A stretch of DNA of 64,000 nucleotides from positions 543,631 through 607,630 of the forward strand of contig CAWGIY010000009.1 of NCBI GenBank assembly GCA_963822845.1. Direction: 5' to 3'. A model generated the notes under the pieces. It did no database searches, was not told the origin of the DNA, and was given only the letters and a program-made list of their open reading frames with translations. Each line of letters opens with the position of its first letter. Within the stretch, counting starts at the first letter, position 1. The translations under genes and the position numbers were made by a program. Positions 1-64,000 of this stretch are shown piece after piece. The DNA comes from an uncultured Chloroflexia bacterium (GTDB lineage: Bacteria; Chloroflexota; Limnocylindria; QHBO01).

Positions 1-23
1 AACGACGAAGCGGCAAGCAACGC

Positions 24-214
24 GTGCGCACCAGCGCACACCTCCGCGAAGCTGGAGACGATTCCCTGCCGAAACGTGCGCGTGTCTGCACACCGCGGGA
101 CATGCCCAGGCGCGCCTCGCAGCTAGGTGCGCCAGAGCGCACAGCCGCGCGCCAATCGATGAGGTAGCGGCGCGCAGATTGATCGGTCAGGTGCGCTCTT
201 GGGTGGACGCGCAC
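24..214. promoter_or_regulatory. Array of inverted repeats GTGCGC-N4-GCGCAC (perfect copies at 24-39 and 127-142; the N12-spaced variant at 191-214 and the imperfect copy at 76-93 are weaker) upstream of the small ORF and ABC-2 exporter. Putative operator sites.
   Basis: Read directly from the sequence: 6-bp arms are exact reverse complements. Lies in the non-coding leader of the 289-546 ORF. Confidence 0.35.
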
Positions 215-288
215 AGTTGGCAGGCAATCCCGCCGGCCCCATCCTGAGTACCAGTACCAGACCAGTACTTTTGGAAACGAGCGAACCG

Positions 289-546
289 ATGTTTTCGGTG
301 GCAGTCAAGGGCTACGGCATCGTCATCTGGGATGGCGACGGCATGTGGCGGACCTTCGGCGCGAACGAGTCGATGAGCGCCACCCTTTCGGCACGCGTCG
401 AGCTCGCGCTCCAGGACCTGGAGCTCGGCCTCCGCAGCGATGATGCCGTCTGCGCGGCACTCCTCGAGATCGCCGGCGCCCACCTCCTCTCGGTCGACTG
501 CAGCCACGGCCCCGACGACTGCTGCGAGGACGACGCGCGCAACTAG
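289..546 (+). CDS. Small hypothetical protein of 85 aa with a Cys-rich C-terminus (…CSHGPDDCCEDDARN).
   Basis: GC3 is very high from ATG 289 to the stop and poor upstream of 289. It sits 85 bp upstream of an ABC-2 exporter. Confidence 0.45.
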   Translation: MFSVAVKGYGIVIWDGDGMWRTFGANESMSATLSARVELALQDLELGLRSDDAVCAALLEIAGAHLLSVDCSHGPDDCCEDDARN

Positions 547-631
547 CCCTCGGTCCCCGCGCCGCACGAGGCGGTGCTACCATCGCGCTCCCGCCCATCT
601 ACTGCCGATCGGCCATGCGCCGTGGGGACCC

Positions 632-5321: not shown

Positions 5322-5334
5322 ATGCCTGCGGATG

Positions 5335-7476: not shown

Positions 7477-7569
7477 GGGGACTCGATTCTAGCCGCCTCC
7501 ATCGGTCCCATCCGGAACCATCCAAGGGCCTATATCGGGAGGCTGCGCGCCGTTCCTACGATCGGCGCA

Positions 7570-16016: not shown

Positions 16017-18898
16017 TCACGAGGCGAGCGCCGCGGCGACCTCTTCCTCGGCCTCCTCGCGAGCCACGTCGCCGGCCGACTTCGGCACGCGGCGCCATGC
16101 CCCGTCGGTGCGGAGGTATCGGTCCATCTGCTCCCAGTTCGCCCCCACCTTGAGATCGACCTCGAGCGGCACGTCCAACGGGAGTGCACCCTCCATGATC
16201 TCGACGGCGAGGTCGGCGAGGGCGGGCAGCTCGTCCTCATCGGTCTCGAACACGAGCTCGTCGTGGACCTGGAGGAGCATCTGCGAGCGCAGCCCGCTGT
16301 CGCGCAACGCGGCGTCCAGCCGGACCATGGCGATCTTCATCCCGTCGGCGGCCGTTCCCTGGATCGGCATGTTGATCGCCATGCGCTCGCCGGCGGAGCG
16401 CAGCGCCCCGTTCCGCGCCGTGAGCTCTGGGAGGTAGCGGCGGCGCCCGAGGAGCGTCGTGACGAATCCCTGGTCACGGGCGAGGATCTTCATCTCGGTC
16501 GTGTAGCGCCGAATCCCGGGGTAGGCCTTGTAGTAGTCCTCGATGTAGCCGCGCGCCTCCTCGCGAGGGATGCGCAGCCGGTCCGCGAGGCCGAAGTCCG
16601 ACAGCCCGTATGCGATCCCGTAGTTGATCATCTTCGCCACGCTGCGCTCCTTCGGCCCGACCTGGTCGGCGGCGAGGCCCAGGACACGAGCGGCGGCCGC
16701 GAGGTGGATGTCCGAATGGGCGGCGAAGTCGGTGCGGAGCCCCTCATCGCCCGACACGTGAGCGAGGATGCGCAGCTCCTGCTGCGAGTAGTCGGCGCCC
16801 AGCAGCAGCCGGCCCGACGGCGCGACGAACGCCCGACGGATGCGCCGCCCCAGCGCCGTGCGGATCGGGATGTTCTGGAGGTTCGGATCGGTGCTCGAGA
16901 GGCGCCCGGTCGCGGCGACAGCCTGCTGGTAGGTCGTGTGCAGGCGCGCCTGCGCGTCGACGAGGGTCGGCAGCGCGTCGACGTACGTCGACTTCAGCTT
17001 CGCCACCTGCCGATGCTCGAGGATGAGGTCGATGACCTCGTGCTTGTCGCGGAGCTCCTCCAGGACCGATGCGTCCGTCGAGCGGCTCGTCCGCGTCCGC
17101 TTCGTCGAGGGCAGCTCCAGCTCGTCGAAGAGGACGGTCTCCATCTGGCGCGGTGAGCCGATGTTGAACTCGTGCCCCACGAGCGCGTAGATCCGTGACT
17201 CCAGCCCGGCGAGCGTCGCAGCGAACTCCTCGCGCATCGCCTCGAGCGCGCCCAGGTCGATCTTGATGCCCGCCAGCTCCATCCGCGCCAGGACCGGCAA
17301 CAGCGGCATCTCGACCTCGTCGAAGAGGTTCGCCACGCCTCCCTCCGCCAGCTCCCGCTCGAGCGCCGGCACCATGAAGACCGATGTCATCGCCTCGGCC
17401 GCCGCGCGGCGCGCCATCGCCTGCTCCTCTGCGCCGGTGTCGGGGCTCAGCGGCCGGTCCGGCAGCGTCGCGCCGAAGCGGGTGGCGGCCATGTCGTCGA
17501 TCGTCTGAGAACGCAGCGCCGGGTTGACCATGTAGCCGGCGACGAGCGTGTCGAAGAACCGGCCCTGCAGCTCGATCGTCGCGATCCGTCGCCAGGGTCA
17601 CGACCAGCTGCTTCAGGTCGTGGCCGACGCGCCGCGGCTCGCTCCGGGCGAACCACGCCGGCAGCCGCTCGATCGCGACACTCGACGGGTCGCACGGCAC
17701 GTACCAGCTGCTGGCATCGGCGCCGGCCAGCGCGATCCCGAACAGCCGCCGATCGAGCGGCCGGCCGCTGCCGACGGCCCAGCCGAGACCGACGGCGTCG
17801 CCGTGCGCCTCGAGCCACGCGGACAGGTCCCCCATCTCCTCCTCGGTGCGGACGAAGCGCGGGTCGGCGTGCTCGATCGCGCCGGCCGGGTCGCTCAGCG
17901 GGTCGGGCCGCGCCTGTGGCGCGTCGCCGGTGGCCGCCGGGGCCTTTCCCGCCGAGCAGGTCGAGGCTGAGCTGGAGCCCGCCCTTCGTGTCCTGCTCCG
18001 GCGAGTCGTACCCCGTCGGCGCGATGCTCGACGCCGGCAGCCGGTCGATGAGCGAGCGGAACTCGAGCTCTCGGAGGCGCTGCGCGACGGCGCGGCGGTC
18101 GTATCGGCCGGTGCGGGCCTCCTCGAGGTCCAGGTCGACCGGCAGGTCGGTGACGATGCGGCCGACCTCGCGCGACAGGAACGCCGAGTCGCGGTGCTCG
18201 GCGAGCCGGTCGCGGAGCTTGCCCTTCACCTCGTCGAGGTGCTCGTAGAGGCCGTCGAGCGTGCCGAACTGCTGGAGAAGCGACGAGGCGGTCTTCTCCC
18301 CCACACCCGGCACGCCCGGGATGTTGTCGGAGGTGTCGCCCTTGAGCGCCTTGTAGTCGAGCATCTGGTCGGGACGCAGGCCGTAGCGCTCCATGACGCG
18401 GGCCTCGTCGTAGATGACCGTCGCCGCGACGCCCATGCGAGTCGTGAGCAGCCGCACGTGGTCGTCGACGAGCTGGAGCCCGTCGAGGTCGCCGGAGACG
18501 ATCATCGTGTCGACGCCCGCGGCGGTCGCCCGCTTGGTGAGGGTGCCGATGACGTCATCGGCCTCGTAGCCGGAGAGCTCGCGGATCGGGATGTTCATCA
18601 TCGTCGCGATCTCGCGCACGATCGGGAACTGCGAGCGCAGGTCGTCCGGCATGCTCGGCCGGCCCTTCTTGTACTCGGGGTAGGCGTCGAACCTGAACTG
18701 CGGCTTTCCGATGTCGAAGCTGACCATCGCGTAGTCCGGCTTCACGTCCTGCATCCCGCGCAGGACGATCTGGAGGAAGCCGAAGACGGCGTTCACGAGG
18801 AGGCCGTCCGACAGCGTGAGCGGCGGGAGCGCGAAGTAGCCGCGGTAGACGAGGCTCGGCCCGTCGATGAGCATGAGGAGAGGTCGTCGGTCGGGCAT
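16017..18898 (-). CDS. polA: DNA polymerase I, interrupted by two apparent +1 frameshifts (near 17590 and between 17835 and 17950).
   Basis: 5'-3' exonuclease domain in one frame, 3'-5' exo-like domain in a second frame, polymerase domain (FFDTLVAGYMVNP... to ...QVHDELVFE) in a third. Frames join exactly at conserved motifs. Confidence 0.9.
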
Positions 18899-26673: not shown

Positions 26674-27529
26674 TCAGCCGTCGGAGCCGGCGATGGCGGC
26701 CCAGGCATCGGCGTAGAGACGCGCGTGGATCGGCAGGTAGCCGGGGTAGGCGCGACGGGCATCGGTCACGGTGGCGGCTTCCAGCGTGACGAGGGCCATC
26801 CGGTCGGTCGTTTCGACGAGGAGCTCGCCGTTGGGGTCGAACGCGACGCTCGGGCCGCCGAGCAGCACCCCCTCCTCCGGATGGGGCCGGTTGACGCTCA
26901 GGACGTAGAGACAGCCGGTCAGCGCGTTCGAGCGGAACACCGTCTTCCAGCGCTGATAGCTCCTCTCCTCGCTGGCTCGCGGAACGAGCGACGCCATCGC
27001 GCCCTGGGCTCCCAGCAGGTGCGTGCCCTCCGGCCGGTTGTTGTCCGAGCAGATCTGGACACCGATCGGGACCCCGAAGGCATCGATCCGTTGCGGCGGG
27101 TTCGTGCCGCGGCTCGTAGTGGCTCGTCTCCCAGAAGCCGGGCTCCTCCGGCAGGTGGAGCTTCTCGTACGTGGCCCGGATCTCGCCGGCGGCATCGATG
27201 ACGAGCGCGCGGCTCGTCCTGCGTCCGGTGGTCTCGTCTCGATGGATGATTCCGCCCACCAGACCGATTCCCGCCTCCTTCGCCGCCTCCCGTTGGGCGG
27301 TTGCCCGCGGCCCATCCGTCGGCTCCGCGTCGTCGTCCTGGGCTTCCTTCGTGGCGGGGCGCCACGGGTTGAGCGGGAGCTCGGGCAGGACGGCGAGGTC
27401 GGCGCCGCGCTCGGCCGCCTCGGCGAGGCGCTGGCGGAGGCGCTGGGCGCCATCGGCCTCCCAGAAGACTTCGGACACGAGGGCAACCGTCAGCTTGCCG
27501 TCGGCCCGGGTGGGTGGGGTGGTCGTCAT
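26674..27529 (-). CDS. Carbon-nitrogen hydrolase (nitrilase superfamily) with one apparent +1 frameshift near 27100.
   Basis: N-terminal part in the 27529 frame (…VLPELPLNPW…), catalytic and C-terminal part (…VQICSDNNRPE… to …NRPHPEEGVL…) in the 27486 frame. Confidence 0.7.
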
Positions 27530-27533
27530 CGGT

Positions 27534-27806: not shown

Positions 27807-28053
27807 GGTGTCAGAGCGTACGCCGTCGATAAGCCGGTCGGTAACGCAGGTCCGCAGCACCATCGGTCCATGCTGCGCAGCAACCTGCCTCGCGCGGTGC
27901 GCCACCTCCGGCGCAGGCGGCCGATGGCGACAAGACCGATCTGGCGGCCAGGCATCGGGCATCTCGCGGACACGGCCGATCTCCCGCATCGAGCGTGGCG
28001 TGGCAATCGGAGTCGATCCCGTCTGCGCGTGATCGCACGCCTGAGCCGAAGCG

Positions 28054-28680
28054 TTGGACGCCTCGGTGGACATCACGGTGAGATGGCACGGCGAAGAGCT
28101 CGACCGTCTCATGGATAGCGCTCACGCCGACCTCGTCAAGACCTGCGTCGGCCTGTTCGAAGCCCGCGGATGGTTGACCCTGCGGCTGGAGGTGAGCTTC
28201 AACCACTACGGCGACCGTGGCCGCGTGCGATGTGGTGGCGTTCCATCCTCCGACGCGCAAGCTCGCCATCGTCGAGGTGAAGAGGCGTTGGGGGACGCGC
28301 AGGACGCACTTGGCAGGCTCGACGTGAAGGCACGTCTGGGCGGGGTCCTCGCGGCGTCAGTCGGCTGGGCTGCGCCGACGCGAGTGGTGCCGGTCTTGGT
28401 GATCGGCAACTCGCGCAGCGCGAGGCGGCTGATCGCGAGTCGCGCCGAGCTGTTCCAGCGATTCGATGTTCGCGGCCGGCAGGCAATGGTCATGGCTGCG
28501 CCAGCCCAGGCGCCTCGTCGCCAACTGGCTTGCTGTGGTTCGCGAACGCGCCAGATTCTCACCCGACGGGCGTTACGCGCGTCGCTCGCGTGCGAACGGT
28601 CAGATCGGGCGGCTGATGCTCACCGTGCGGGAATTCGGACGCTTCGCGCGCATTCCAAGCGCGTAACGCCCACCCGATGA
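28054..28680 (+). CDS. Hypothetical protein with a possible PD-(D/E)xK nuclease-like core; contains compensating frame changes at about 28225 and 28285.
   Basis: GC3 analysis shows the true frame switches for about 60 nt, where it reads DVVAFHPPTRKLAIVEVKRR, a typical D...EVK nuclease motif. Confidence 0.3.
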   Translation: MDASVDITVRWHGEELDRLMDSAHADLVKTCVGLFEARGWLTLRLEVSFNHYGDRGRVRCGGVPSSDAQARHRRGEEALGDAQDALGRLDVKARLGGVLAASVGWAAPTRVVPVLVIGNSRSARRLIASRAELFQRFDVRGRQAMVMAAPAQAPRRQLACCGSRTRQILTRRALRASLACERSDRAADAHRAGIRTLRAHSKRVTPTR

Positions 28681-39468: not shown

Positions 39469-39479
39469 GGGCGCGCCGA

Positions 39480-44952: not shown

Positions 44953-46178
44953 ATGAGTGCGGTCGCGACCGTCACCGAGATCCGCCCCTTCCACGTCGAC
45001 GTCCCCGACGAGGCGTTGGACGACCTTCGTCGACGCATCGCCGCCACGAAGTGGCCCGAGCAAGGAGACCGTCGCCGACGAGTCGCAGGGCGTCCCGCTC
45101 GCCACGATGCAACAGCTCGCGCACTACTGGGCGACCGACTACGACTGGCGCAAGGTCGAGGCCGAGCTCAAGGCACTGCCGCAGTTCGTCACCGAGATCG
45201 ACGGCCTGGACATCCACTTCATCCACGTTCGTTCGCGGCACGAGGGCGCGCTCCCGCTCATCGTCAATCACGGGTGGCCGGGCTCGATCATCGAGCAGCT
45301 GAAGATCATCGATCGGCTGACCGACCCGGTGGCGCACGGCGCGAGCGTCGAGGACGCGTTCCATGTCGTGATTCCGTCGATGCCGGGCTACGGCTTCTCC
45401 GGAAAGCCGACGAGCACTGGATGGGGCCCGGAGCGCATGGCTTCGGCCTGGGCCGAGCTGATGGAGCGCCTTGGCTACACCCGCTACGTCGCCCAGGGCG
45501 GCGATTGGGGTGCGTTCGTCGTCGACCAGATGGGGTTGCAGGCGCCTCCGGGATTGCTCGCCATCCACACCAACATGCCCGCCACCGTTCCGGCCGACGT
45601 CGACAGGGCTTCCCTGGCCGGCGAGCCACCGCCGGCCGGACTGTCGGCGGAGGAGCGACGAGCCTACGAGCAGCTGATCCGAACGTACAAGCAGGTCGAG
45701 TACGCGAGGATGATGGCCGCACGCCCGCAGACGCTCTACGGGATCGCAGACTCCCCCGTCGGGTTGGCCGCCTGGCTGCTCGACCACAACGATGCCGACG
45801 GCCAGCCGGCCGCGGCAGTCGTCTCCGCCCTGGACCGGACGAACGAGCGATACCGGCGAGCTGACGCGTGACGAGGTCCTCGACAACATCACGCTCTACT
45901 GGCTGACGAACACGGGGGTATCGGCCTCTCGCCTGTACTGGGAGTACAAGGGCGGATTCTTCAACGCCAAGGGCGTCTCGATCCCCGTTGCCGTCACGGT
46001 GTTCCCGGGCGAGCAGTACCAGGCGCCGCGCAGCTGGGCCGAGCGGGCCTATCCAAACCTCATCTACTTCAACGAAGTCGACAAGGGCGGCCACTTCGCC
46101 GCCTGGGAAGAGCCCGAGATCTTCACCGACGAGCTGCGAGCGGCGTTCCGGTCGCTCCGAGAAGGGAATTCCTCATGA
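44953..46178 (+). CDS. Epoxide hydrolase (microsomal EH N-terminal domain plus alpha/beta-hydrolase), interrupted by two +1 frameshifts (about 45060 and about 45860).
   Basis: Colinear with the intact paralogue downstream across three frames: IRPFHVDVPDEALDDLRRRIAATKWP ... HGWPGS ... DNITLYWLT ... GGHFAAWEEPE. Confidence 0.8.
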
Positions 46179-47431
46179 CCACCGCGTTCGAGACCGCCAC
46201 CGAGATCAGGCCGTTCCACCTCGAGATTCCAGACGAACGGATCGACGACTTGCGCCGGCGCATCGCGGCGACGCGCTGGCCCAGCAAGGAGCTCGTCCCG
46301 GACCGATCGCAGGGCGTGCAGCTGGCGACGATGCGCGAGCTCGCCCGCTACTGGGCGACCGAGTACGACTGGCGCACGTGCGAGGCGAGGCTGAACGCGC
46401 TCCCCCAGTTCACGACCGAGATCGACGGGGTCGAGATCCACTTCATCCACGTCAGGTCGCGGCATGAGAACGCGTTGCCGCTGATCATGACGCACGGCTG
46501 GCCCGGCTCTGTCGTCGAGCTGCTCGAGACCGTCGGCCCGCTGACCGACCCGACCGCCCACGGCGGCACTCCCGACGACGCGTTCCACCTGGTGCTGCCG
46601 TCCCTGCCCGGCTACGGCTTCTCGAGCGAGCCGACCGAGCTCGGCTGGGACGCTGCCCGCACCGGACGCGCGTGGGCGGAGCTGATGCACCGCCTCGGCT
46701 ATGACCGCTACGTCGCCCAGGGCGGCGACGTGGGCGCCCTTGTCACGGACCTGATGGGTCGCCAGGCGGTCGAGGGTCTGGTCGGCTACCACCTGAACCT
46801 GCTCACGGCGGTGCTCGCGATCGGCGATCAGTTGCCCAGGGAGTCCGAGCAGGAACGCACAGCGGCCGCGGCGGTCGCGGCATTCAGGCAGGACGGCTTC
46901 GGCTACTTCCTCGAGATGGCCACGCGGCCGCAGACGATCGGCTACGCCCTGCTGGATTCACCCGTTGCGCTGGCGGCCTGGCTGCTCGATCACGACACCG
47001 ACAGCTACTACAAGGTCTCCCGCGCGTTCCTCGACGGCCAGCCCGTGGGCGGCCTCACCCGGGAGAGCATCGTCGACAACATCACCCTGTACTGGCTGAC
47101 CGGCACGGCGATCTCGGCGGCCCGGTCGTACTGGGAGGACGGACGAGCGCTGGCCGCAGCGCTCGCGAGCGGCCAGCCTCCACCGCCGGTCTCGGTGCCG
47201 GTCGGCTTCACCACGTTCCCCGGCGAGATCTGGGCGTCGCCACGGAGCTGGGTCGAGGCGGTCTACCCCGACCTCGCCTACTTCAACGAGGCCGAGAAGG
47301 GCGGCCACTTCGCCGCCTGGGAGGAACCCGAGCTCTTCACCACCGAGGTGCGGGCCGCATTCAGCTCGCTCCGCGGAAGCCTCGAGCCCGTGCCGATGGC
47401 GGAGATGGCCGCTCGCAGCCCAGCGCCGTGA
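46175..47431 (+). CDS. Epoxide hydrolase (intact tandem paralogue).
   Basis: 418 aa with the EH N-terminal domain, HGWPGS and GGHFAAWEEPELF. ATGA overlap with the upstream gene. Confidence 0.85.
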   Translation: MTTAFETATEIRPFHLEIPDERIDDLRRRIAATRWPSKELVPDRSQGVQLATMRELARYWATEYDWRTCEARLNALPQFTTEIDGVEIHFIHVRSRHENALPLIMTHGWPGSVVELLETVGPLTDPTAHGGTPDDAFHLVLPSLPGYGFSSEPTELGWDAARTGRAWAELMHRLGYDRYVAQGGDVGALVTDLMGRQAVEGLVGYHLNLLTAVLAIGDQLPRESEQERTAAAAVAAFRQDGFGYFLEMATRPQTIGYALLDSPVALAAWLLDHDTDSYYKVSRAFLDGQPVGGLTRESIVDNITLYWLTGTAISAARSYWEDGRALAAALASGQPPPPVSVPVGFTTFPGEIWASPRSWVEAVYPDLAYFNEAEKGGHFAAWEEPELFTTEVRAAFSSLRGSLEPVPMAEMAARSPAP

Positions 47432-48442
47432 TCCGTTCGCTGATTCACCGGCAGGCGGCCGACGGTGCAGCCCTGCCCGTCGAGGGTCAACTCCCCGGCT
47501 TCGAGGGTGCCACCGGCTGGCTGAACTCGGAGCCGCTGACGCCGGCAGGGCTGCGAGGTCGCGTCGTCCTCGTCGACTTCTGGACCTACACCTGCATCAA
47601 CTGGCTGCGGACGCTTCCGTACGTCCGCGCCTGGGCCACGAAGTACCGCGACCTGGGCTTGACCGTCATCGGTGTGCACACGCCGGAGTTCGGGTTCGAG
47701 CACGAGCGAGACAACGTCATCGCCGCAGCGCGGGACGAGAACGTCGACTACCCGATCGCGCTCGACAACGACTACGCGGTCTGGCGGGCGTTCGCCAACA
47801 ACTACTGGCCGGCCATCTACATCGCCGATGCGGAGGGGCGACTTCGGTATCACCACTTCGGCGAAGGCGAATACGCCATGACCGAGATGGTCATCCAGCA
47901 GCTGCTCTCGGACGCCGGAGCCGATGGGATCGACGGCGAGCTGGTCCACGTTGAGCCCGACGGCTTCGAGGTCGATGCCGACTGGCAGAACGTCCGGTCT
48001 CCGGAGACGTATCTGGGGTACGGCAGGACCACGGGCTTCGCATCCCCCGATGACCTCCAGGCCGATACGGCGCACGCCTATCCCGAGCCTGCGGGGCTCC
48101 GACTCAACCAATGGGCGCCGACCGGGAATTGGACGATCGCGCGGCACGCCGCGGTGTTGAACGACGCCAACGGGCGCATCACCTTCAGGTTCCACGCCCG
48201 GGACGTGCACCTCGTCATGGGCCCTGCGACGCGCGGGACCTCCGTGCCGCATGCGCGTGACGGTCGATGGGCAGAACCCCGGTGCATCGCACGGGCTGGA
48301 CATCGACGAGTCAGGCGCCGGGACGGTGGCCGACCAGCGCCTCTACCAGCTGATCCGCCAGAACGGTCCGATCTCCGAGCGCGTGGTCGACATCGAGTTC
48401 CTCGAGCCGGGCGTCGAGGCCTACTGCTTCACCTTCGGCTGA
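47428..48442 (+). CDS. Thioredoxin-like/redoxin-domain protein with a DipZ-like C-terminal domain; one +1 frameshift near 48250.
   Basis: N-terminal redoxin region in one frame. The conserved C-terminal ...RVTVDGQNPGASHGLDIDESGAGTVADQRLYQLIRQNGPISERVVDIEFLEPGVEAYCFTFG lies in the next frame. Confidence 0.75.
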
Positions 48443-48460: not shown

Positions 48461-49160
48461 ATGCTGGCGGGCATGTCGGCAGGTGCGACTCTCACGGCCC
48501 GGGCCTTCGTCGGCAGCCTGGCGTCCCTCCGCCCTGCGGATGCCAAGGGTGACGGCCCCTACGCCGGCATCGGGATGGGCCAGGTCTTCAAGCTGGCCAA
48601 AGAATTCCAGGCGATGCCGCCGGCCGAGATCGAGCAGCTGCTCGAGAACGACGATCATCTGGTCCGCGTCGGCGCCGTCAGCATCATGGACTGGCAGGCG
48701 CGAGACAGGAAGACGCCGGCCGAGCGGTCGGCGCGAGCTGTTCGACCTGTACATCCGCCGGCACGACCTGATCGACACCTGGGACCTCGTCGATCGCAGC
48801 GCGATCCACGTCGTGGGTGAGTACCTCGTCGACAAGCCGCGGGACATCCTGCACGAGCTGGCGCGTTCCGAGAGGCCGATGGAGCGGCGAACCGCGATCC
48901 TCAGCACCTATGCCTTCATCCGGCGCAACGAGCTCGACGACACGTATCGGATCGCGGAGACGCTCGCGAACGACCCGGACGAGCTCGTCTGCAAGGCCGT
49001 TGGCTGGATGCTGCGCGAAGCCGGAAAGCGGGACCAGCCCCGGCTCGAATCGTTCCTCGAGGCCCATGCCGCGACGATGCCGCGGGTGATGCTCCGCTAC
49101 TCCGTCGAGAAGCTCGACAAGGCCGACCGCGACCGCTACCTCGCCATGAAGCGGCGCTGA
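48461..49160 (+). CDS. DNA alkylation repair protein (AlkD/AlkC-like HEAT-repeat glycosylase); one +1 frameshift near 48715.
   Basis: N-terminal ...GIGMGQVFKLAKEF... in one frame, and the remainder (...TWDLVDRSAIHVVGEYL...KAVGWMLRE...) in the next. Confidence 0.7.
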
Positions 49161-50430: not shown

Positions 50431-50505
50431 GGTCTCCTCCTACTGGAAAGTGCGAATGTCCAATATTAGGCAGTAGCACTTCCCAATGTCAACCGGAGGC
50501 AATCA
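50431..50505. promoter_or_regulatory. Divergent promoter region with dyad GGAAAGTGC-N22-GCACTTCC. Candidate MerR-type operator.
   Basis: AT-richer 75-bp spacer between the RidA and MerR-family genes. Dyad read from the sequence. Confidence 0.3.
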
Positions 50506-51136
50506 ATGCGGATCTCGGAGCTGGCCCGGCGCAGCGGCGTCCCCGTGGGCACCGTCAAGCACTACCTGCGCGAGGGACTGCTCCCCGCCGGTGAGCGCAT
50601 GTCCGCGACCCAGGCGCAGTACGGCGAAGAGCACGTCGCCCGCATCGGTCTCATCCGTGCCCTATTGGGCACGGGCGGCTTGTCCACGAAGGCCGCCCGC
50701 GCGGTCCTGGCGGCCGTAGACGACCCGACTTCGTCCGCTCACGACATGATCGGTGCGGCGTACAGCGCCATCCAGCCGCCGGCGGCCACGCCGCCCGACC
50801 TCGCCGCGGCGCAGGCGCATCTGCGGCGCTGGGGTTGGCAGGTCCACGACGACTCGCCACCGGTGGCGGTGCTGGCTCAGGCGCTGGCTGCCCTCGAGGC
50901 TGCCGGCTTCGACACTCCGAGACCAGCTGTTGGACCGATACGCCACGGCCGCCCACGAGCTCGGCGAGGGCGACGTGGACATGGTGCCGATGGACTCGCC
51001 GGCCGAGGCGGTCCGCTTCGCCGTCATCGGGACCCTGCTGCTCGAGCCGGTTCTCCTGTCGTTGCGCCGCCTCGCTCAGGAGGACGTCTCGGCTCGTCGC
51101 CAGTCCAACCCCGATGCTCCCCTATTGCCTCGTTAA
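50506..51136 (+). CDS. MerR-family transcriptional regulator; one +1 frameshift near 50920.
   Basis: N-terminal HTH MRISELARRSGVPVGTVKHYLREGLL. C-terminal effector domain continues in the next frame. Confidence 0.7.
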
Positions 51137-51193: not shown

Positions 51194-51893
51194 ATGAAGA
51201 TCACGGTCGTGGGGGCAAGCGGACTCATCGGTACCAGGGTCGTCGAGCACCTGAAGAGCCAGGGCCACGACGTCGTCGCGTCGTCGCGGTCGTCGGGCGT
51301 GGACGTCCTGACCGGAGACGGCCTGGCCGATGCGCTCGCCGGCGCTGACGCGCTCGTCGACGTGACGAACTCGCCCTCGCTCGAGGGCGGCCCGGCGTTG
51401 GACTTCTTCACGAAGTCGGCCACGAACATCGCGGATGCGGCCAAGGCGCGCCGGCGTCGACCACTACGTCGCGCTGTCGATCGTCGGCGTCGACGGGCTA
51501 CCCGACAGCCCGTACTTCGTCGCCAAGGTCGCGCAGGAGAAGATCATCACCGAGTCCGGCATCCCCTACTCGATCGTGCACGCCACCCAGTTCGCCGAGT
51601 TCGCCGACGCGATCACCGAGTCCATGACCGTCGGAGACGAGGTGCGCGTGCCCGATGCGCTGATCCAGCCGGTCCCCGCCGACGAGGTGGCCGCCGCGGT
51701 CGCGCGCGCGGCCGTCGGCGAGCCGCTCAACGGCATCGTGAACGTCGGTGGGCCGCAGAAGATCACGTTCGAGCAGCTGGCCCGCGACTCCCTGGCGCGG
51801 AAGGGCGACGACACGAAGACCGTCATCGTCGACCCGGAAGCCCGCTACTTCGGGGCGAAGCTGACAACGCGCAGCCTGGTTACGCCCGACTAG
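51194..51893 (+). CDS. NAD(P)H-binding NmrA/SDR-like oxidoreductase; one +1 frameshift near 51450.
   Basis: Rossmann motif VVGASGLIGTRV in one frame; the rest (…VHATQFAEFADAI…) in the next frame. Confidence 0.7.
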
Positions 51894-53083: not shown

Positions 53084-53443
53084 GTGAAGAACGGCAAGGA
53101 CGCTCCCCTGACGCCGGCGGTGCTGCACATCCTGCTCGCGCTCTCCACCGAGGAGCGGCACGGGTACGGGATCATGAAGCAGGCCGAACGGGAGTCGCAG
53201 GGCAAGGTGAAGATGGGGCCGGGCACGCTGTACGGCTCGATCGGCCGCATGATCGAGGCGGGGCTGATCCGCGAGAGCGACAAGAAGGTCGACCCCGCGA
53301 TGGACGACGAGCGGCGGATCTACTACACGATCACCGGGCTCGGGCGGAAGGCGCTCGAGGCCGAGCTGGACCGATACCGCGACGTCGTCGCGGTCGCCCA
53401 CGAGAAGCACCTCACGCCGAACGCGTTTGCCGATGGCGTCTGA
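53084..53443 (+). CDS. PadR-family transcriptional regulator.
   Basis: Winged-HTH region ...HILLALSTEERHGYGIMKQ...GTLYGSIGRMIEAGLI... Confidence 0.85.
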   Translation: MKNGKDAPLTPAVLHILLALSTEERHGYGIMKQAERESQGKVKMGPGTLYGSIGRMIEAGLIRESDKKVDPAMDDERRIYYTITGLGRKALEAELDRYRDVVAVAHEKHLTPNAFADGV

Positions 53444-54204
53444 TCGGTCCATTCGCCGATACCGGCGCTGGTATGAACGGCTGCTCCGCCTCTACCCCGG
53501 ATCCTTCCAGGACCGCTACGGCGAACCGATGGCGCAGACCTTCACCGACCTCTGCACGCGAACGGACCGATGCGAACCGGGGCCTCCTCGGCTTCGCCCT
53601 CGGGACGTTCGCCGAGACCTCCGCCGCAATCCTGAGGGAGAACATGACGCAGCTCATGCAGAACAAGAACTACTTCCGCTGGGTCCTCATCACCGCCGCG
53701 GTGCTGGCGCTACCGGCCCTGGCCATGTTGTTCCAGATCGGTGTCCCCGACCCGGGCTCGGGCACCGAGGGCGTGAACTGGGGACCGATGGACTTCGCCA
53801 CCATGGGCGTCCTCATCCTCGGCAGCGGCCTCCTGTTCGAGTACGCCAGCTCGCGGGACGGAAGCGTCGCGCACAAGGCCGCGGTCGGCATCGCCGTCCT
53901 GGCCGGGCTGGGCCTCATCTGGGTCAACCTCGCGGTCGGCATGATGGACGTCGAGAACGGCAACCTGATGTACGTCCTCGTCCTCTTCGTCGGGCTCGTC
54001 GGGGCCGCGATCGGGCGCTTCGAGCCGCGTGAGGCGTCGATCGCGATGTTCGCGACGGCAGGCGCCCAGGCGGTGGTCGTCGTGATCGCGCTCGTCGCGG
54101 GGCTCGGCCCGACGCTGCTGGCGGACGCGTTCTTCATCGCGGCGTGGATCGCATCGGCCGTGCTGTTCCGGCAAGCCAGCGTCGCACCGTCGCCGGCGGG
54201 GTGA
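53433..54204 (+). CDS. Membrane protein co-transcribed with padR; one +1 frameshift near 53570.
   Basis: ATG overlaps the padR stop. Polytopic TM region in the shifted frame. Confidence 0.6.
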
Positions 54205-55200: not shown

Positions 55201-55357
55201 TCAGGTCAGCCAGCCGATCGCCGCCGCCCACGAGGCCAGGTCGCCAAGCCCCAAGGAGTCAGCGCCCTCGGCAACTCCGGAAGGCGACCGACCGACGAGC
55301 AGTTCCCGCACGCCAGAGGCGCTCGTCGTGGAGCAACCATCGTCGAGCGGTGCGAGG

Positions 55358-57256: not shown

Positions 57257-57281
57257 GGGCAGGTCCGCTGCTGTCACCAGT

Positions 57282-57299
57282 TATATCAGTAGTGATATA
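57282..57299. promoter_or_regulatory. AT-rich dyad TATATCA-GTAG-TGATATA in the promoter region upstream of the cobalamin riboswitch.
   Basis: Perfect 7-bp inverted repeat. Shares the TATATC/GATATA arms with the site at 53031-53050. Confidence 0.35.
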
Positions 57300-57477
57300 T
57301 CCCGCGACACCAACGAAGGCACGGGCCGCCGCTCGTACGACAACTCGATCCAGGAGTGGGGCAACAAGGAGCCTGTTCGAGACGCTTCCGCAGCGCGTCG
57401 ACCTGGAGCAGACCGATCTTCTGCGAGGCCGGCGGCGTCGCCCACGTCTCGTACCGCGTCATTCGATAGCGCGCGGC

Positions 57478-57722: not shown

Positions 57723-58922
57723 ATGTCGGACCTCTCCATCCAGCCCGCATCGCGGATTGTGCGGGCCTGGACCCTCGTCCTCGTGGTCCTCGCGTTCATG
57801 CTCACCGCCGTGGCCGCCCCATCGGTGCGCGCCGGCGGATCCACGACCACCGATCCAGGCGACGCCGCCGGCGGCTGGATCGCCCAGCAGGTCGAGACCG
57901 ATGCGACCCTCGGTGTCGGTTCGCTGGCGGATGCCATCTTCGCCTTCGCCGCGACCGGTGTCGGCCAGGCCGCCGCCGCCGATGCTCTTGCCCGCATCGA
58001 GGCCGGTCTCGAGGCGTTCGTCTCGGACGGGACGAACCTGCGCCCCGGGGCGCTGGGCAAGGCCATCCTTGCGGTCAGCGTCCAGGGTGGCAACGTGAAC
58101 AGCTTCGGCGGGCGCGACCTCGAGGCCGACCTCCGCGGCCTGCTGGTCACGTCGGGGCCGGACACCGGCCGCTTCGGGTCCGCCACCGTCTTCGACCAGA
58201 CGATCGCGGTGCTCGCCCTGGCCCGGACCAGCGGTGGCGTGCCGGCCAGTGCCGGAGACTGGTTGGCCGCCGCGCAATGCCCGAGCGGCGAGTACCAGTG
58301 GGACGGGTCCTGCCCGGCCGGCCCTGGCCTCGAGGATCCGGACACCACCGCGCTGGCGCTCCAGGCGCTGCTGGCTGCCGGCGAGACGGCCGCCGCGGCC
58401 GGATCGACGACCTGGCTCCTGGACCTCCAGGCCAGTGACGGTTCGCTCGCCTCCTTCGGCACCCCGAACACGAACAGCACCGGCGTCGCGGGCCAGGCGC
58501 TGCGTGCCGCCGGCGAGACCGCCGCCGCCGACGCGGCCGCGGCCTTCGTCGTCTCCCTCCAGCTCGGCTGCGACGCCGATCCCGGCACGATCGGCGCGAT
58601 CGCCTGGTCGGTTGCCGATCCGGGCTTCCTCATCTTCTCGACGCCGCAGGCCGTCCTCGCGCTCGGCGCGCCGCCGCTCGACACGCTGAGCGCGGCCGGC
58701 GCATCAACGGACGCGCCGGCGCTCGAGTGCGCGGTCACCGGACCGCCCGCGACGGCAACACCGTCCCCCACGCCGACGGCCTCGCCCGGCGCCGGGGGCG
58801 CGCTGCCCGACACCGCGTCCGGTGCGGGTGACGCGGCGGGACTGCTCGCGACGCTTGCGGGCGGGATGCTCGTCGCTGGCGGTGTCGTGGCCATCCGCCG
58901 GAAGGTCGGAGCCCGGTCGTGA
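57723..58922 (+). CDS. Cell-surface prenyltransferase/squalene-oxidase-repeat (alpha/alpha-toroid) protein with signal peptide and a C-terminal LPDTAS sorting-signal-like motif, TM and RRK tail.
   Basis: Repeated QxxDGS[WL]-type terpenoid-cyclase repeats. AAGGAAG RBS. First gene after the riboswitch. Confidence 0.75.
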   Translation: MSDLSIQPASRIVRAWTLVLVVLAFMLTAVAAPSVRAGGSTTTDPGDAAGGWIAQQVETDATLGVGSLADAIFAFAATGVGQAAAADALARIEAGLEAFVSDGTNLRPGALGKAILAVSVQGGNVNSFGGRDLEADLRGLLVTSGPDTGRFGSATVFDQTIAVLALARTSGGVPASAGDWLAAAQCPSGEYQWDGSCPAGPGLEDPDTTALALQALLAAGETAAAAGSTTWLLDLQASDGSLASFGTPNTNSTGVAGQALRAAGETAAADAAAAFVVSLQLGCDADPGTIGAIAWSVADPGFLIFSTPQAVLALGAPPLDTLSAAGASTDAPALECAVTGPPATATPSPTPTASPGAGGALPDTASGAGDAAGLLATLAGGMLVAGGVVAIRRKVGARS

Positions 58923-59828
58923 CCGATGGCGCCGGCCGAGCCCTGCTCGGCCGGCGAGCCCTCCCCTTCGTCGCGGCCCTCCTGCTCGCGGTCGCGGCGC
59001 TCGGTGCGCCTGCCGAGGCACGGGCATGGACCGCGGGGGCGTGCCCGACGACCACGAGCGGCGTGACGGTCGTCGTCGACTTCGGCGCCCTCGGCGCCGG
59101 GACGGTCGTTCGTTGCGCACCAGGGGACCCGGCCACCGGGTTCGCGGCCCTCGCGGGTGCCGGCTTCTCGATCGAGCAGGTCAGCAACGTGCCGGGCTTC
59201 CTGTGCCGCATCGACGGCCGGCCCGGCGCGAGCCAGGAGACGTGCGTCAACACGCCGCCGGCGTCCGCGTACTGGGTGTACTGGCACGCGCCGCGCGGCG
59301 GAAGCTGGACCTACAGCTCGTCGGGGGCCGCCACCCGCAACCCTTCACCCGGCACCGTCGAGGGCTGGTCGTTCTCCGGCCCCGGCGGCGTGACGCCACC
59401 CGGCGTGCCGCCTCCTCCCCCGCCGGCGGCTCCGAAGCCGACGCCCACGCCACGCCCGCCGGCGCCCGCGCCCACCGCGCCGGACGCACCGGCGCCCACG
59501 AGCCGGCCCGCGGGCGCAACGGCCGCCCCCACGCCGCGGGCGGTCACCCCGGAGCCGACGGCGACTGGGCTCACCGAAGGCGTCAGCGCGCCCGTCGGCC
59601 ACGCCCCTGAGTCGCCCGACGGCCTCAGCCTCCGCGAGCGCGGCGACGTCGGAGCCATCTGCGTCGCCCTCCCCGTCGGATGCCGTGACCGCTGCGGCGA
59701 GTGCCGCGCCGGCTCCTCCGGCCGTCCCGCTCGGCACGGCCGCGGGCGTGGCGATCGCGGTGGCGGTCGGGAGCGCGGCCGCGATCATCGTGCGGCGCCG
59801 TGCGGCGGGCGCGGATGGAGGGCCGTGA
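58919..59828 (+). CDS. DUF4430-domain surface protein with Pro-rich linker and C-terminal TM anchor; one +1 frameshift near 59600.
   Basis: GTGA start overlap with the upstream gene. C-terminal ...GVAIAVAVGSAAAIIVRRRAAG anchor becomes readable only in the shifted frame. Confidence 0.7.
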
Positions 59829-60963
59829 GTTGAGCACGCACGACCTCCGACCGGCCCGCACGCTGCACCCCGGTGCCTGGTGGCTGTGGGCGCTCGGCCT
59901 CGCGATCGTCGCGAGCCACACGACGAACCCGCTGCTGCTCGGCCTGATCATCGGCGTCGCCGCGCTCGTGGTCGCCGCGCGACGCGAGGACGCGCCGTGG
60001 GCGCGCGCGTTCCGCATGTACCTCTACCTCGGCGCAGCGATCGTGGTCATCCGGGTCGGCTTCCGCATCCTGTTCGGGGGCGAGTTCGGCACGAACGTCC
60101 TCTTCTCACTGCCCGAGGCCGCACTGCCCGAGTGGGCGGCCGGCATCCGCATCGGCGGCGAGGTCACGGCCGAGAGCGTCCTCGCGGCCTTCGTCGACGG
60201 CCTGCGGCTGGCGACGATCGTCATCTGCTTCGGCGCCGCGAACAGCCTTGCCAACCCCGGGCGCCTGCTGCGCCTGGCGCCGAATGCCCTGTACGAGGCC
60301 GGCGCCGCGGTCACCGTGGCGATGAGCCTCGCCCCGCAGCTGGCGGAGAGCGTGATCCGCGTCGGCCGGGCCCGCCGCGTCCGCGGCTCGGTCGCGGGAG
60401 GTCGCCGATCGGTGCCCGGCATCCTCCTGCCGGTGCTCCAGGACGCGCTCGACCGATCCCTCTCGCTCGCGGCCTCGATGGATGCCCGGGGCTACGGCCG
60501 ATCCGGCGCCGAGCCGGCCGCCCGTCGCCGAGTGACCGCGGCGCTCCTCATCGTCGGCCTGTTCGGCGTCGCGATCGGCCTCTATGGCGTGCTCGACGCG
60601 ACGGCCGCGATCCCGCTGGCGGCGCCGATCATGGCCGGTGGCGCGGCGTTGCTGGTCGGCGGCATGGTGGCCGCTGGGCGCCGCGTCCAACGCACGCGCT
60701 ACCGCCCCGATCCGTGGGGCCTGTCCGAGTGGCTGGTCACGGCGTGCGGGGCGCTCGCGGTCACCTCGGTCATGCTCGGTGCGACCCTCGATCCGGCCTC
60801 GCTGCACATGTCCCTCGCGCCGATCTCGTGGCCGGGGCTTGCGGTCGTCCCGACCATCGGTGTGCTCGTCGCGGCGACGCCGGCCTGGATCGTGCCGCCG
60901 CCGATTTCGAGGGCGGCCAGACGGACCTCGGCCGCCGGTGCGACCTCGGGAGCTCGACCGTGA
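59815..60963 (+). CDS. Energy-coupling-factor transporter transmembrane component (EcfT/CbiQ family).
   Basis: Polytopic membrane protein with CbiQ-like conserved regions. ATG overlaps the upstream gene end. Confidence 0.8.
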   Translation: MEGRELSTHDLRPARTLHPGAWWLWALGLAIVASHTTNPLLLGLIIGVAALVVAARREDAPWARAFRMYLYLGAAIVVIRVGFRILFGGEFGTNVLFSLPEAALPEWAAGIRIGGEVTAESVLAAFVDGLRLATIVICFGAANSLANPGRLLRLAPNALYEAGAAVTVAMSLAPQLAESVIRVGRARRVRGSVAGGRRSVPGILLPVLQDALDRSLSLAASMDARGYGRSGAEPAARRRVTAALLIVGLFGVAIGLYGVLDATAAIPLAAPIMAGGAALLVGGMVAAGRRVQRTRYRPDPWGLSEWLVTACGALAVTSVMLGATLDPASLHMSLAPISWPGLAVVPTIGVLVAATPAWIVPPPISRAARRTSAAGATSGARP

Positions 60964-62570
60964 TCCAGTTCCACGGCGTCTCGCTGACCTACCCGGAGGC
61001 ATCGGCTCCGACGTTGCGTGACGTGGAGCTGGCCGTCGAGGAGGGCAGCCTCTGCCTCGTGGCCGGGCGCACTGGCGCCGGCAAGACGACCCTGCTGCGG
61101 CTCGTCAACGGCCTCGTCCCCCACTTCAGCGGCGGCCTCCTCACCGGCCGCGTGACCGTCGGCGGCCGCGACACGCGCGACCATCCGCCGCGCGAGCTGG
61201 CCGACGTCGTCGGGTCGGTCGCGCAGGACCCCCTTCACGGGTTCGTGACCGACAGCGTGGAGGAAGAGCTCGCCTACGGCATGGAGCAGCTCGGCGTCGA
61301 CCCCGCCACGATGCGCCGGCGCGTGGAGGAGACGCTCGACCTCCTGGGAATCGCCGACCTGCGCGACCGATCGCTCCGCAGCCTCTCCGGCGGGCAGCAG
61401 CAGCGCGTCGCGATCGGTTCGGTGCTCGCAGCCGGGCCACGCGTCCTCATCCTCGACGAGCCCACCTCGGCGTTGGACCCGCCCGCCGCGGAGGAGGTCC
61501 TCGCCGCCGTCCTGCGACTCGTCCACGACCTGGGGCTCACGGTCCTGCTCGCCGAGCACCGGATGGAGCGCGCCGTCGGCTACGCCGACCGCATCGTCAC
61601 CGTCCATGGCGACGGCACGGTCACCGACGGACCGCCCGCCGCGGAGCTCGAGCGGCTGGAGCTCGTCCCGCCCGTCGTCGAGCTGGGCCGGATGGCGGGG
61701 TGGTCCCCGCTGCCGCTCACCGTTCGCGACGCCCGCGCGAGCGCCGGGTCGCTGCGGACGAGGCTCGCCGAGGTCGCGCCGGCGGATCGTGCTGCGGAGC
61801 CGACGGACACGATCGCCCTTCGTGCCGAGCGGCTGACGGTGACGTACGGGCCGGTCACCGCCGTGCGCGACGTCACGCTCGAGCTGGCGCGCGGGGCGGT
61901 GGCGGTGCTCATGGGCCGCAACGGAGCGGGCAAGTCGTCGCTGCTGTGGGCGTTGCAGGGATCGGGACCGCGACGCTCGGGCAGCGTCCGGGTCGAGGGC
62001 CTCGATCCAACCGTTGGGGGCGCTGCGACCAAGGGACTGGTCGGCCTCGTCCCGCAGACCGCGGCCGACCTGCTCTACCACGACACGGTCGACGCGGAGT
62101 GTCAGCAGTCCGACCGTGACTGGCAGGTCCGTCCGGGGACGACTCGCGACCTGCTGGCGCGGATCGGCAGAGACGTCGACCCGGCAATCCACCCCCGGGA
62201 CCTGTCCGAGGGCCAGAGGCTGGCGCTCGTCCTCGCGATTCAGCTCGCGGGATCGCCGAAGGTCGTCCTGCTCGATGAGCCGACGCGCGGCCTCGACTAC
62301 CCGGCCAAGGCGTCACTGGTCGATGTCCTTCGCGGCCTTGCCGGCGCCGGCCACGCCATCCTCGTCTCGACCCACGATGTCGAGCTGGCCGCGTCGCTCG
62401 CCGATCGCGTCATCGTGATGGCCGGCGGAGAGATCGTCGCCGACGGCACCGCGGTTGAAGTGCTGGCCGCCTCGCCGGCGTTCGCGCCCCAGGTCGCGAA
62501 GATCCTCGGCCCGCCATGGCTCACCGTCGACGGCGTCCGTCGAGCCCTCGCTCTCGGGGGCGCGGCATGA
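60960..62570 (+). CDS. Fused duplicated ECF transporter ATPase (EcfA-EcfA').
   Basis: Two complete ABC cassettes (GRTGAGKTT/LSGGQQQRV/LILDEPTSALD and GRNGAGKSS/LSEGQRL/VLLDEPTRGLD). GTGA start overlap. Confidence 0.9.
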   Translation: MIQFHGVSLTYPEASAPTLRDVELAVEEGSLCLVAGRTGAGKTTLLRLVNGLVPHFSGGLLTGRVTVGGRDTRDHPPRELADVVGSVAQDPLHGFVTDSVEEELAYGMEQLGVDPATMRRRVEETLDLLGIADLRDRSLRSLSGGQQQRVAIGSVLAAGPRVLILDEPTSALDPPAAEEVLAAVLRLVHDLGLTVLLAEHRMERAVGYADRIVTVHGDGTVTDGPPAAELERLELVPPVVELGRMAGWSPLPLTVRDARASAGSLRTRLAEVAPADRAAEPTDTIALRAERLTVTYGPVTAVRDVTLELARGAVAVLMGRNGAGKSSLLWALQGSGPRRSGSVRVEGLDPTVGGAATKGLVGLVPQTAADLLYHDTVDAECQQSDRDWQVRPGTTRDLLARIGRDVDPAIHPRDLSEGQRLALVLAIQLAGSPKVVLLDEPTRGLDYPAKASLVDVLRGLAGAGHAILVSTHDVELAASLADRVIVMAGGEIVADGTAVEVLAASPAFAPQVAKILGPPWLTVDGVRRALALGGAA

Positions 62571-63403
62571 CCGCATTGCCGGCGCGCGCGACGGCCGTGC
62601 CCGTCGCCGCGCGACCGTGGCTCGTCCTGGCCATCGGTTCGGCCGTGGGGGTCATGGCATTCTGCTGGCCCTTGATCGTGTCGCCCGGCCCGGCTGGCGC
62701 GCCGCGGATCGACAGCCCGCTGCTGTTCGTCGCGATACTGCCGATCATCGTCGCGACCCTCGTCATCGAGCTGTCGGCCGGTCGCATGGACGCCAAGGCC
62801 ATCGCCATGCTCGGCGTCCTCGCAGCCCTGGGTGCGGCGCTGCGCCCGCTCGGTGCCGGCACCGCCGGGGTCGAGACGGTGTTCGTCCTGCTCGTCCTCG
62901 GCGGGCGCGCGTTCGGACCGGGGTTCGGCTTCGTGCTGGGCCCGGTCACGCTCTTCGCATCGTCGCTGCTCACCGGTGGCGTCGGGCCGTGGCTGCCGTT
63001 CCAGATGCTCGCCGCCGGCTGGGTCGGCCTCGGCGCCGGCCTCCTCCCGCGGGCACGGGGCAAGCGCGAGGGCCTCCTGCTCGCGGCGTACGGCGCCGCC
63101 GCCGCCTTCGGCTATGGCCTCGCCATGAACCTGTGGTTCTGGCCGTTCGCCGCCGGTCTCGATACGGCGCTCTCGCTCGTCCCGGGTGATCCGATCCTCG
63201 ACAACCTCGGCCGGTTCCTGCTGTTCACCCTCGCGACGTCAATGGGCTGGGACCTCGGCCGCGCGATCACCACGATCGTGCTGCTGGCCGTCCTCGGCCC
63301 GACGGTCCTGGGAGCCCTTCGCCGTGCCGGCCGGCGCGCGGCGTTCGGCGCGTCAGCGCAGTTCGCCACGCGGGACGCCGCGGAAGGGGTCAGCCCTCCG
63401 TAG
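62567..63403 (+). CDS. ECF transporter substrate-specific (S) component.
   Basis: Small six-TM protein. ATGA overlap with the ATPase gene. Confidence 0.7.
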   Translation: MTALPARATAVPVAARPWLVLAIGSAVGVMAFCWPLIVSPGPAGAPRIDSPLLFVAILPIIVATLVIELSAGRMDAKAIAMLGVLAALGAALRPLGAGTAGVETVFVLLVLGGRAFGPGFGFVLGPVTLFASSLLTGGVGPWLPFQMLAAGWVGLGAGLLPRARGKREGLLLAAYGAAAAFGYGLAMNLWFWPFAAGLDTALSLVPGDPILDNLGRFLLFTLATSMGWDLGRAITTIVLLAVLGPTVLGALRRAGRRAAFGASAQFATRDAAEGVSPP

Positions 63404-63428
63404 CGGCTCCTGCCGCTACGATCCGCTC

Positions 63429-64000
63429 GTGAGCCACCTGCCCCCGGATCGGATGATCCCGCTCCTGCCGTGCCGATCCATCGACGATCAGATCGCCTTC
63501 TACGAGTCGATCGGCTTCGAGGTCACCTATCGGCAGAAGGCGCCGAACGTGTATGCATCGGTCCAGCGCGGGCTGATCGAGCTCCATTTCTTCACGATGA
63601 AGGGCTACGAGCCGGCGAATTCGTACAGCACGTGCTACGTGATGGTCAGCGACATCGACGCGCTGTACGCCGACTTCCGGGAAGGCCTGAAGCGCAGCCT
63701 CGGCCGCGTGCCGACCCGCGGCATGCCCCGGATCGGTGCGCTCGGGGACATGTCCTACGGCGTCCGCCAGTTCCTCCTGACCGATCCGGGCGGCAACATC
63801 ATTCGCATCGGTCAGCCATTGGCCGCGACCAGGGGCGGCGCCGCGCATCCGACCTCGCGACTGGCGAAGGCGCTGGACGCGGCGACTCTGCTCATGCACT
63901 CGAAGGTTGACCCCGAGACGACCGCTCGGGTGCTCGACGCCGCGATGGCCGATGACCCGGATGCGCCCGACGTCCTCCTCGCCCAGGCTCGGATCCTGCG
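63429..64000 (+). CDS. VOC/glyoxalase-bleomycin-resistance family protein, 3'-truncated by the window end.
   Basis: High GC3 frame running off the window; absent from the ORF track, which requires a stop. Sequence ...CRSIDDQIAFYESIGFEVTYRQ... Confidence 0.55.
   Translation, partial: MSHLPPDRMIPLLPCRSIDDQIAFYESIGFEVTYRQKAPNVYASVQRGLIELHFFTMKGYEPANSYSTCYVMVSDIDALYADFREGLKRSLGRVPTRGMPRIGALGDMSYGVRQFLLTDPGGNIIRIGQPLAATRGGAAHPTSRLAKALDAATLLMHSKVDPETTARVLDAAMADDPDAPDVLLAQARIL

Follow-up and report, generated by a model that had tools for sequence, protein, structure and literature searches.

Bacterial genes in which a conserved protein continues in another reading frame are known from several well-described settings. 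In pseudogene-rich genomes, such as those of Mycobacterium leprae or of recent host-restricted bacteria, the lesions are shared among strains and come together with stop codons, deletions and a relaxed dN/dS (the ratio of nonsynonymous to synonymous substitution rates), and essential replication genes are spared. The sites of programmed frameshifting in dnaX (-1) and prfB (+1), and those of transcriptional slippage in endosymbionts, are conserved across relatives and marked by defined slippery motifs or long homopolymers (in the endosymbionts, A/T tracts of roughly 9 nt or longer). A third setting is technical, and here the textbook Nanopore error is the deletion of a base within a homopolymer. 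That indels in Nanopore consensus sequences give rise to frameshifted gene calls is well established, as is the need for about 40-fold coverage to reach near-finished quality (PMC9262707). The metagenome-assembled genomes (MAGs) of the Microflora Danica (MFD) project were produced from Nanopore data only, by Flye (--meta --nano-hq) and one round of Medaka with no short-read polishing, and the catalogue was inspected for Nanopore-associated errors by its own authors (PMC12313526). Here we analyze a stretch of 64,000 nucleotides (the window) of contig CAWGIY010000009.1 of an uncultured Chloroflexota bacterium (assembly GCA_963822845.1), in which single-base frame changes run through many genes, including the replication genes polA and dnaE.

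The window resembles the pseudogene-rich genomes in the many genes interrupted by frameshifts, and the programmed and slippage systems in that the conserved protein continues in another frame. Its likeness to Nanopore-only consensus errors (PMC9262707, PMC12313526) covers single-base indels that fragment gene calls and are private to each assembly, essential genes struck at random, lesions that a one-base edit removes and, within this clade, a restriction to long-read-only assemblies. We consider it very probable that the frame changes are consensus indel errors, nearly all of them spurious extra bases, of a long-read-only metagenome assembly, and they are almost certainly a known kind of assembly artefact and not a biological system.

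Frame changes in the window

The window has about 70% G+C, and naive lists of open reading frames (ORFs) consequently consist mostly of long spurious ORFs. The gene map and the list of frame switches were therefore derived from a codon-usage model trained on ORFs with high GC3 (G+C at the third codon position) and a 7-state Viterbi segmentation. A frame switch was accepted when both frames were on the same strand and the upstream frame had no stop codon at the switch, and its site was placed by DNA alignment to relatives or by alignment to intact protein homologues. In this way we found 13 single-base frame changes in 10 genes (two each in polA, dnaE and epoxide hydrolase 1, one each in seven others), together with an eleventh affected gene, coding for a helix-turn-helix (HTH) and PD-(D/E)xK-like protein, that has approximately 7-9 further ones. 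The original prediction had placed frame changes in at least 13 genes. The frame changes themselves, including the double ones, are borne out by the agreement of the Viterbi segmentation, the Pfam matches and the alignments, while the number of genes comes down to 11.

All 13 coding lesions are 1-nt insertions in the window, which was the direction foreseen for most of them, and the deletion of one base at each of the 13 sites leaves uninterrupted ORFs without any internal stop. In the unrepaired window the coordinates of the Pfam profiles run on from one frame to the next within the split genes; after repair the genes with a Pfam domain give single continuous matches with higher scores than before. 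That the conserved protein continues in the next frame, as had been proposed, is thus seen both in the profile coordinates and in the full-length ORFs that the repair restores.

The predicted rate of about one indel per 5 kb agrees with the 13 lesions in 64 kb (one per 4.9 kb), and becomes about one per 2.4 kb when the hot spot of the HTH/PD-(D/E)xK-like gene (about 9 frame changes within 0.74 kb) and five non-coding private indels are included. The distribution is uneven, with no coding lesion within 1-17.5 kb or within 28.6-41.8 kb, and with 10 coding and 4 non-coding private insertions between 41.8 and 59.6 kb. The original prediction had also laid emphasis on homopolymers; this holds for about half of the insertions, which lengthen runs of 1-3 identical bases, while the remainder, judging from their local contexts, lie outside homopolymers. 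The base runs at the lesion sites are 1-4 nt long, and the maximum for the whole window is 6 nt. The non-coding private indels are the following.

36989: window 1 nt short relative to 4 of 4 relatives, 5 nt upstream of an ATG
44755: 1 extra nt in the window
54358, 56565 and 57420: 1 extra nt each, relative to locus L084 only

A number of candidates were set aside. Two gene-sized ORFs, one of 931 aa at 5332-8127 on the plus strand and one of 1207 aa at 38671-42294 on the minus strand, are by their GC3 out-of-frame artefacts of the high G+C; uvrB, at 5335-7476 on the minus strand, is intact in the window. The apparent switch at 60892 reflects the normal overlap of the EcfT and EcfA genes, the minus-strand switches at 59313-59791 are mis-assignments in Pro-rich sequence, and two differences of 1 nt, at 29841 and 10063, fall between genes and are not coding lesions. 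An association of the insertions with a CpG motif was dropped as well: on one strand the insertion follows CpG at 9 of 17 window sites versus about 4 of 15 private insertions in the related loci L001 and L083 taken together, a comparison made by eye and without statistics.

polA and dnaE

The two replication genes are both on the minus strand and are struck twice each.

16017..18898, minus strand: polA, two 1-nt insertions, 17577 (gat[C]gtc) and 17947 (ctt[T]ccc); repaired PolA of 959 aa
39480..43168, minus strand: dnaE, two 1-nt insertions, 41860-41862 and 42305-42307; repaired DnaE of 1228 aa

Over 3479 nt aligned with scaffold L081 (91.5% identical), the polA region shows two gaps and no others, each caused by an extra base of the window. 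The stitched PolA (961 aa) is 84-95% identical to intact PolA proteins of 951-963 aa over 98-100% of its length. In the unrepaired gene, the Pfam domains 5_3_exonuc_N and 5_3_exonuc are found in one frame and DNA_pol_A in another. For dnaE, a tblastn search with an intact DnaE matched the window in three frames, and the DNA_pol3_alpha profile, split into 1-139 and 137-260, becomes one match of 1-260 once the gene is repaired. The lesion at 41860-41862 is an extra C in CCC and the one at 42305-42307 an extra G in GGG, i.e., an extra C on the coding strand; neither extra base is found in any of 10 relatives (10/10). The original prediction had recognized the latter as an extra C in a C-run, which is correct for the coding strand, at a place (42296-42300) that has to be moved to 42305-42307.

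The dN/dS of the repaired dnaE is 0.134 relative to locus L001 and 0.106 relative to L002, and that of the repaired polA is 0.098 relative to L081. With values of about 0.10-0.13 in both genes, the repaired dnaE and polA are under strong purifying selection in this lineage.

Comparison with related genomes

Related loci were obtained by scanning species-representative genomes with the C-terminal part of DnaE, which gave 80 loci, all of them from MAGs of Candidatus Limnocylindria or Chloroflexota; exact-protein matches supplied additional loci. The comparison with orthologous loci, a check that the original prediction had proposed, was possible at the DNA level for 12 of the 13 sites, and at 11 of these the insertion is private to this assembly. 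Specifically, the extra base at each of the 11 sites is absent from all of the 2-10 relatives that cover it, including contigs that are 97-98% identical to the window. Genuine decay would be expected to leave lesions shared by descent among close relatives, and only one of the 12 sites is shared.

The nearest relatives are contigs of MFD MAGs. Locus L001 is 97.3% identical to the window at the DNA level, with a best protein segment that is 100% identical. L001/L084 and L083, both belonging to the European Nucleotide Archive (ENA) assembly ERZ25039494, are 97-98% identical to the window and lack its insertions wherever they overlap, with the exception of the one at 48728 in the AlkD-like gene (see below). 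These relatives have frame changes of their own. L083 carries private 1-nt insertions at 6295 (in uvrB), 2731, 2987, 3873, 3877 and 4553, in genes that are all intact in the window, and L001 has at least four private insertions, at 45364, 46572, 47528 and 48388. L082 contains many private 1-nt insertions, with uvrB and a Rieske oxygenase gene split, and in L085 an EcfT-EcfA fusion appears as a 667-aa EcfT-ABC protein (P0156). Insertions predominate in L001, L082 and L083 too. The mis-called proteins of L082, L083 and L085 are already present in public protein collections.

A separate observation concerns the MAG MFD02360.bin.1.60 (a GTDB representative), which has two dnaE loci, L001 on contig_7052 and L018 on contig_842. 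The two loci are 77% identical at the protein level and syntenic, over approximately 15 kb, with the neighbourhood in the window. This MAG probably mixes two related Limnocylindria populations.

Link with sequencing technology

We took a census of dnaE by tblastn of an intact DnaE against the 80 Limnocylindria loci, of which 29 are from MFD and 51 from other sources (the assembler type of the non-MFD loci was deduced from the contig names). Frame changes were found in 6 of the 29 MFD loci (8 of 29 with two looser C-terminal cases) versus 0 of the 51 others (Fisher p = 0.0016). The affected MFD loci have 1-3 frame changes each, at positions that differ from locus to locus. A lethal lesion that strikes roughly one in four genomes of a single sequencing pipeline, at random positions, and never those of the others is an artefact.

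The proteins of the window sit on a contig of 706,766 bp (NCBI, ENA), a size typical of a long-read soil-metagenome assembly and in keeping with the presumed sequencing platform. A contig of run ERR12035939 in Logan encodes a CpaB identical to that of the window.

Other frameshifted genes

The remaining genes with one or two insertions, apart from the AlkD-like one, are listed here.

26674..27531, minus strand: CN-hydrolase, 1-nt insertion at 27109 (gcc[G]cgg)
44953..46178, plus strand: epoxide hydrolase 1, insertions at 45063 (gca[A]gga) and 45843 (cga[A]cga), 406 codons once repaired
47428..48442, plus strand: DipZ-like thioredoxin-fold protein, 1-nt insertion at 48250 (ccg[C]atg)
50506..51136, plus strand: MerR-family regulator, 1-nt insertion at about 50918-50921 (ccg[A]gac)
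51194..51893, plus strand: NmrA-like NAD(P)-binding protein, 1-nt insertion at about 51449 (gcg[C]gcc), 243 codons once repaired
53433..54204, plus strand: membrane protein downstream of padR, 1-nt insertion at 53552 (cct[C]tgc)
58919..59828, plus strand: Pro-rich protein, secreted and anchored in the membrane by its C terminus, 1-nt insertion at 59564 (gcg[A]ctg)

The same pattern of split and rejoined Pfam matches recurs in four of them. The CN_hydrolase match, split into 16-141 and 131-238, becomes a single one of 16-238 (107.5 bits) after repair; EHN in epoxide hydrolase 1 goes from 1-33 and 26-106 to 1-106, Thioredoxin_10 in the DipZ-like gene from 1-89 and 78-142 to 1-142, and NAD_binding_10 in the NmrA-like gene from 1-88 and 87-180 to 1-180. 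The extra base of the window is absent from L003, L065 and L082 at 27109, from L001, L002 and L075 at both sites of epoxide hydrolase 1, from L001, L002 and L003 at 48250, from L001/L084, L002, L065, L075 and L085 at 51449, and from L084, L085 and L005 at 53552. In L084 the orthologues of the NmrA-like protein (232 aa) and of the membrane protein next to padR (256 aa) are intact.

For the MerR regulator the site was judged from protein homology only, as no related DNA spans it: the stitched protein (210 aa) is up to 90% identical over 96% of its length to intact homologues of 202-214 aa. The uncorrected read-through of the window, with 280 aa, is present in the protein database as P0297. The stretch that contains the MerR gene together with a RidA-like gene (50057-51091, 1.0 kb) is missing from the 97%-identical L084 and is a strain-variable insertion or deletion.

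The Pro-rich protein and a DUF4430 protein, which the original prediction had counted as separate genes, turned out to be one gene (58919-59828) with one shift, and no Pfam match, to DUF4430 or to any other family, was found in it before or after repair. Over 6.6 kb, L084 is 98.3% identical to the window with only two gaps, one of which is the insertion at 59564, and its orthologue is intact in a single frame; a net +1 is seen in L085 at this position too.

Other features of these neighbourhoods deserve a brief description. A tandem pair of epoxide hydrolase paralogues (EHN plus alpha/beta hydrolase) occupies 44953-47431, the first with the two insertions and the second intact. The Pro-rich protein belongs to a cluster at 57723-63400 that also encodes EcfT, an ECF S-component-like protein, a double ABC ATPase fusion (EcfA-A') and a secreted protein with repeats and a sortase-like signal, LPDTAS; the cluster is probably an uptake system of the ECF type whose binding proteins are anchored at the surface. 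At 57250-57470 there is a remnant of a RibD_C-family gene, from which about 370 nt (approximately residues 79-150) are missing relative to the intact 186-aa gene of L084; the extra base at 57420 falls within it. A Pro/Glu/Thr-rich repetitive stretch upstream of an HTH_3 protein (54650-55400) varies in length at many points relative to L084, in many cases by a multiple of three, and looks like a variable repeat region.

The AlkD-like and HTH/PD-(D/E)xK-like genes

Two genes depart from the general pattern, one by sharing its lesion with a relative and the other by the number of its frame changes.

48461..49160, plus strand: AlkD-like DNA alkylation repair protein, 1-nt insertion at 48728 (cgg[T]cgg), 238 codons once repaired
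27870..28610, plus strand: HTH(XRE)/PD-(D/E)xK-like gene, about 7-9 frame changes in 740 nt

In the AlkD-like gene the DNA_alkylation profile is matched only from 78 to 213, in one frame, before repair and from 22 to 213 after it. The extra T at 48728 (GAGCGG[T]CGG) is absent from L002, L003, L005, L065 and L075 and present in L001. There, the gene has a compensating 1-nt deletion at 48698, 30 nt upstream, and private indels also at 48492 and 48900. Either the same context gave rise to the same error twice or the insertion at 48728 is a real variant common to both, and the alternative sequences to be told apart are GAGCGGTCGG and GAGCGGCGG.

The PD-(D/E)xK gene had been suspected to add two more shifts. 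The gene is real, and a frameshift-aware protein-to-DNA alignment with intact homologues from L009, L078 and L066 requires about 7-9 changes, near 27921, 27934, 27953, 28015, 28044, 28228, 28283, 28489 and 28511. The density of frame changes is more than 50 times that of the rest of the window, and many of them form close out-and-back pairs; taken together, the frame changes add up to a multiple of three. Once its frame is restored, the protein gains matches to HTH_31 and HTH_3, is well conserved, has no in-frame stop and keeps the D...E.K core. The gene lies in an island of 0.9 kb (27811-28736) that is not conserved in the closest relatives. It may represent a low-coverage or strain-mixed consensus, or a true pseudogene.

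Origin of the frame changes

If the frame changes are long-read consensus indels, the window would most likely be a Nanopore/Flye/Medaka contig from a soil population of Candidatus Limnocylindria (Chloroflexota), deriving from the MFD long-read MAG project or a comparable data set. The true polA, dnaE and other affected genes of the organism would be intact, and one surplus base in the consensus would be enough for the gene caller to yield fragments or read-through junk, as in the 280-aa "MerR". Errors would be denser where the consensus probably rests on fewer or on mixed reads, as in strain-variable islands (27.8-28.7 kb) and between 41.8 and 59.6 kb; the local coverage of the contig, or a mixture of strains, presumably modulates consensus quality. 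The original prediction of sequencing or assembly indels, as opposed to pseudogenes, is upheld by the privacy of 11 of the 12 sites tested at the DNA level, by the dN/dS of 0.10-0.13, by the private insertions that the closest, Nanopore-only relatives have in other genes and by the finding of dnaE frame changes in Nanopore-only MAGs alone.

Some observations weigh against this explanation. The classic Nanopore picture is one of deletions in long homopolymers, whereas the errors here are nearly all insertions (13 of 13 coding lesions), about half of them outside homopolymers and the runs involved having only 1-4 bases, and the platform is itself deduced. The AlkD insertion is common to the window and to the independently assembled L001, and errors arising by chance alone would not recur in both. 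For the repaired proteins, look-ups of eight exact sequences from six genes (two versions each for MerR and AlkD) found no independent copy, a result that is uninformative in itself.

An alternative is a mostly artefactual set with a genuine minority, in which the variant at 48728 would be real in the lineage, or the HTH/PD-(D/E)xK-like gene a decaying pseudogene in a strain-variable island, or both. The presence of the extra T in the window and L001 and in none of five other relatives, the three more indels of L001 within the same gene, the more than 50-fold density over 740 nt in a stretch not conserved in the closest relatives and the fact that both genes are dispensable all speak for it. 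However, L001, too, is a Nanopore contig rich in errors, and it is plausible that near-identical sequence prompts the same context-specific error again. The conserved and stop-free repaired HTH/PD-(D/E)xK-like protein, with its core intact, fits low-coverage consensus errors better than long decay, and the frame changes, with their close out-and-back pairs and a total that is a multiple of three, are as in a poorly polished consensus. On balance we regard a genuine minority as unlikely.

It is much harder to believe that all or most of the frameshifts are real, in a lineage undergoing genome decay or in a non-viable relic population with polA and dnaE inactivated, and we consider this very unlikely. 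The lesions are indeed present in the sequence as given, and the second, diverged dnaE (L018) in the bin of the closest relative could in principle relax selection on the first. Being syntenic with the window, however, L018 is no back-up paralogue but the orthologue from a different organism that was placed in this bin. Unlike in M. leprae and similar genomes, 11 of the 12 lesions tested at the DNA level are private even against contigs that are 97-98% identical, the dN/dS of dnaE and polA is far from approaching 1, and both these genes are struck twice; moreover, the repaired ORFs of the frameshifted genes contain no premature substitution stops, and lesions of this kind strike different genes in each Nanopore relative and never appear in the other assemblies. 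A decoding of the shifts, by programmed +1 ribosomal frameshifting or transcriptional slippage that restores the frame so that the genes work as written, has in its favour only that the downstream frame carries the conserved protein, and its probability is practically nil. The 13 local contexts are all different and share no slippery motif, the base runs fall far below slippage tracts, and, in contrast to dnaX, prfB and the endosymbiont genes, the sites are not conserved in relatives, all of which encode the proteins in one frame. We likewise give hardly any credence to the extra bases being truly part of living Limnocylindria DNA, whether in a population that survives with polA and dnaE both frameshifted through an efficient, context-independent recovery of the frame, in a hypermutating lineage in mutational meltdown or, in a weaker form, with only AlkD 48728 and the HTH/PD-(D/E)xK-like gene genuinely and recently inactivated.

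Implications for Limnocylindria genomes

With consensus indels as the preferred explanation, approximately one gene in six of the window is mis-called as a fragment, a fusion or read-through junk, P0297 being an example. Naive ORF calling, pseudogene counts, completeness estimates and any claim of a missing polA or dnaE would be wrong for this MAG. The advice of the original prediction to stitch gene predictions is sound, and the genes described here have to be stitched or polished before use. A sizeable fraction of the Nanopore-only Limnocylindria MAGs is affected in the same way, with a frameshifted dnaE in about a fifth to a quarter of them, and frameshift-aware annotation or short-read polishing is required ahead of any comparative analysis. 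For this lineage the consequences are practical only: the frame changes are an artefact of an ordinary kind, to be corrected.

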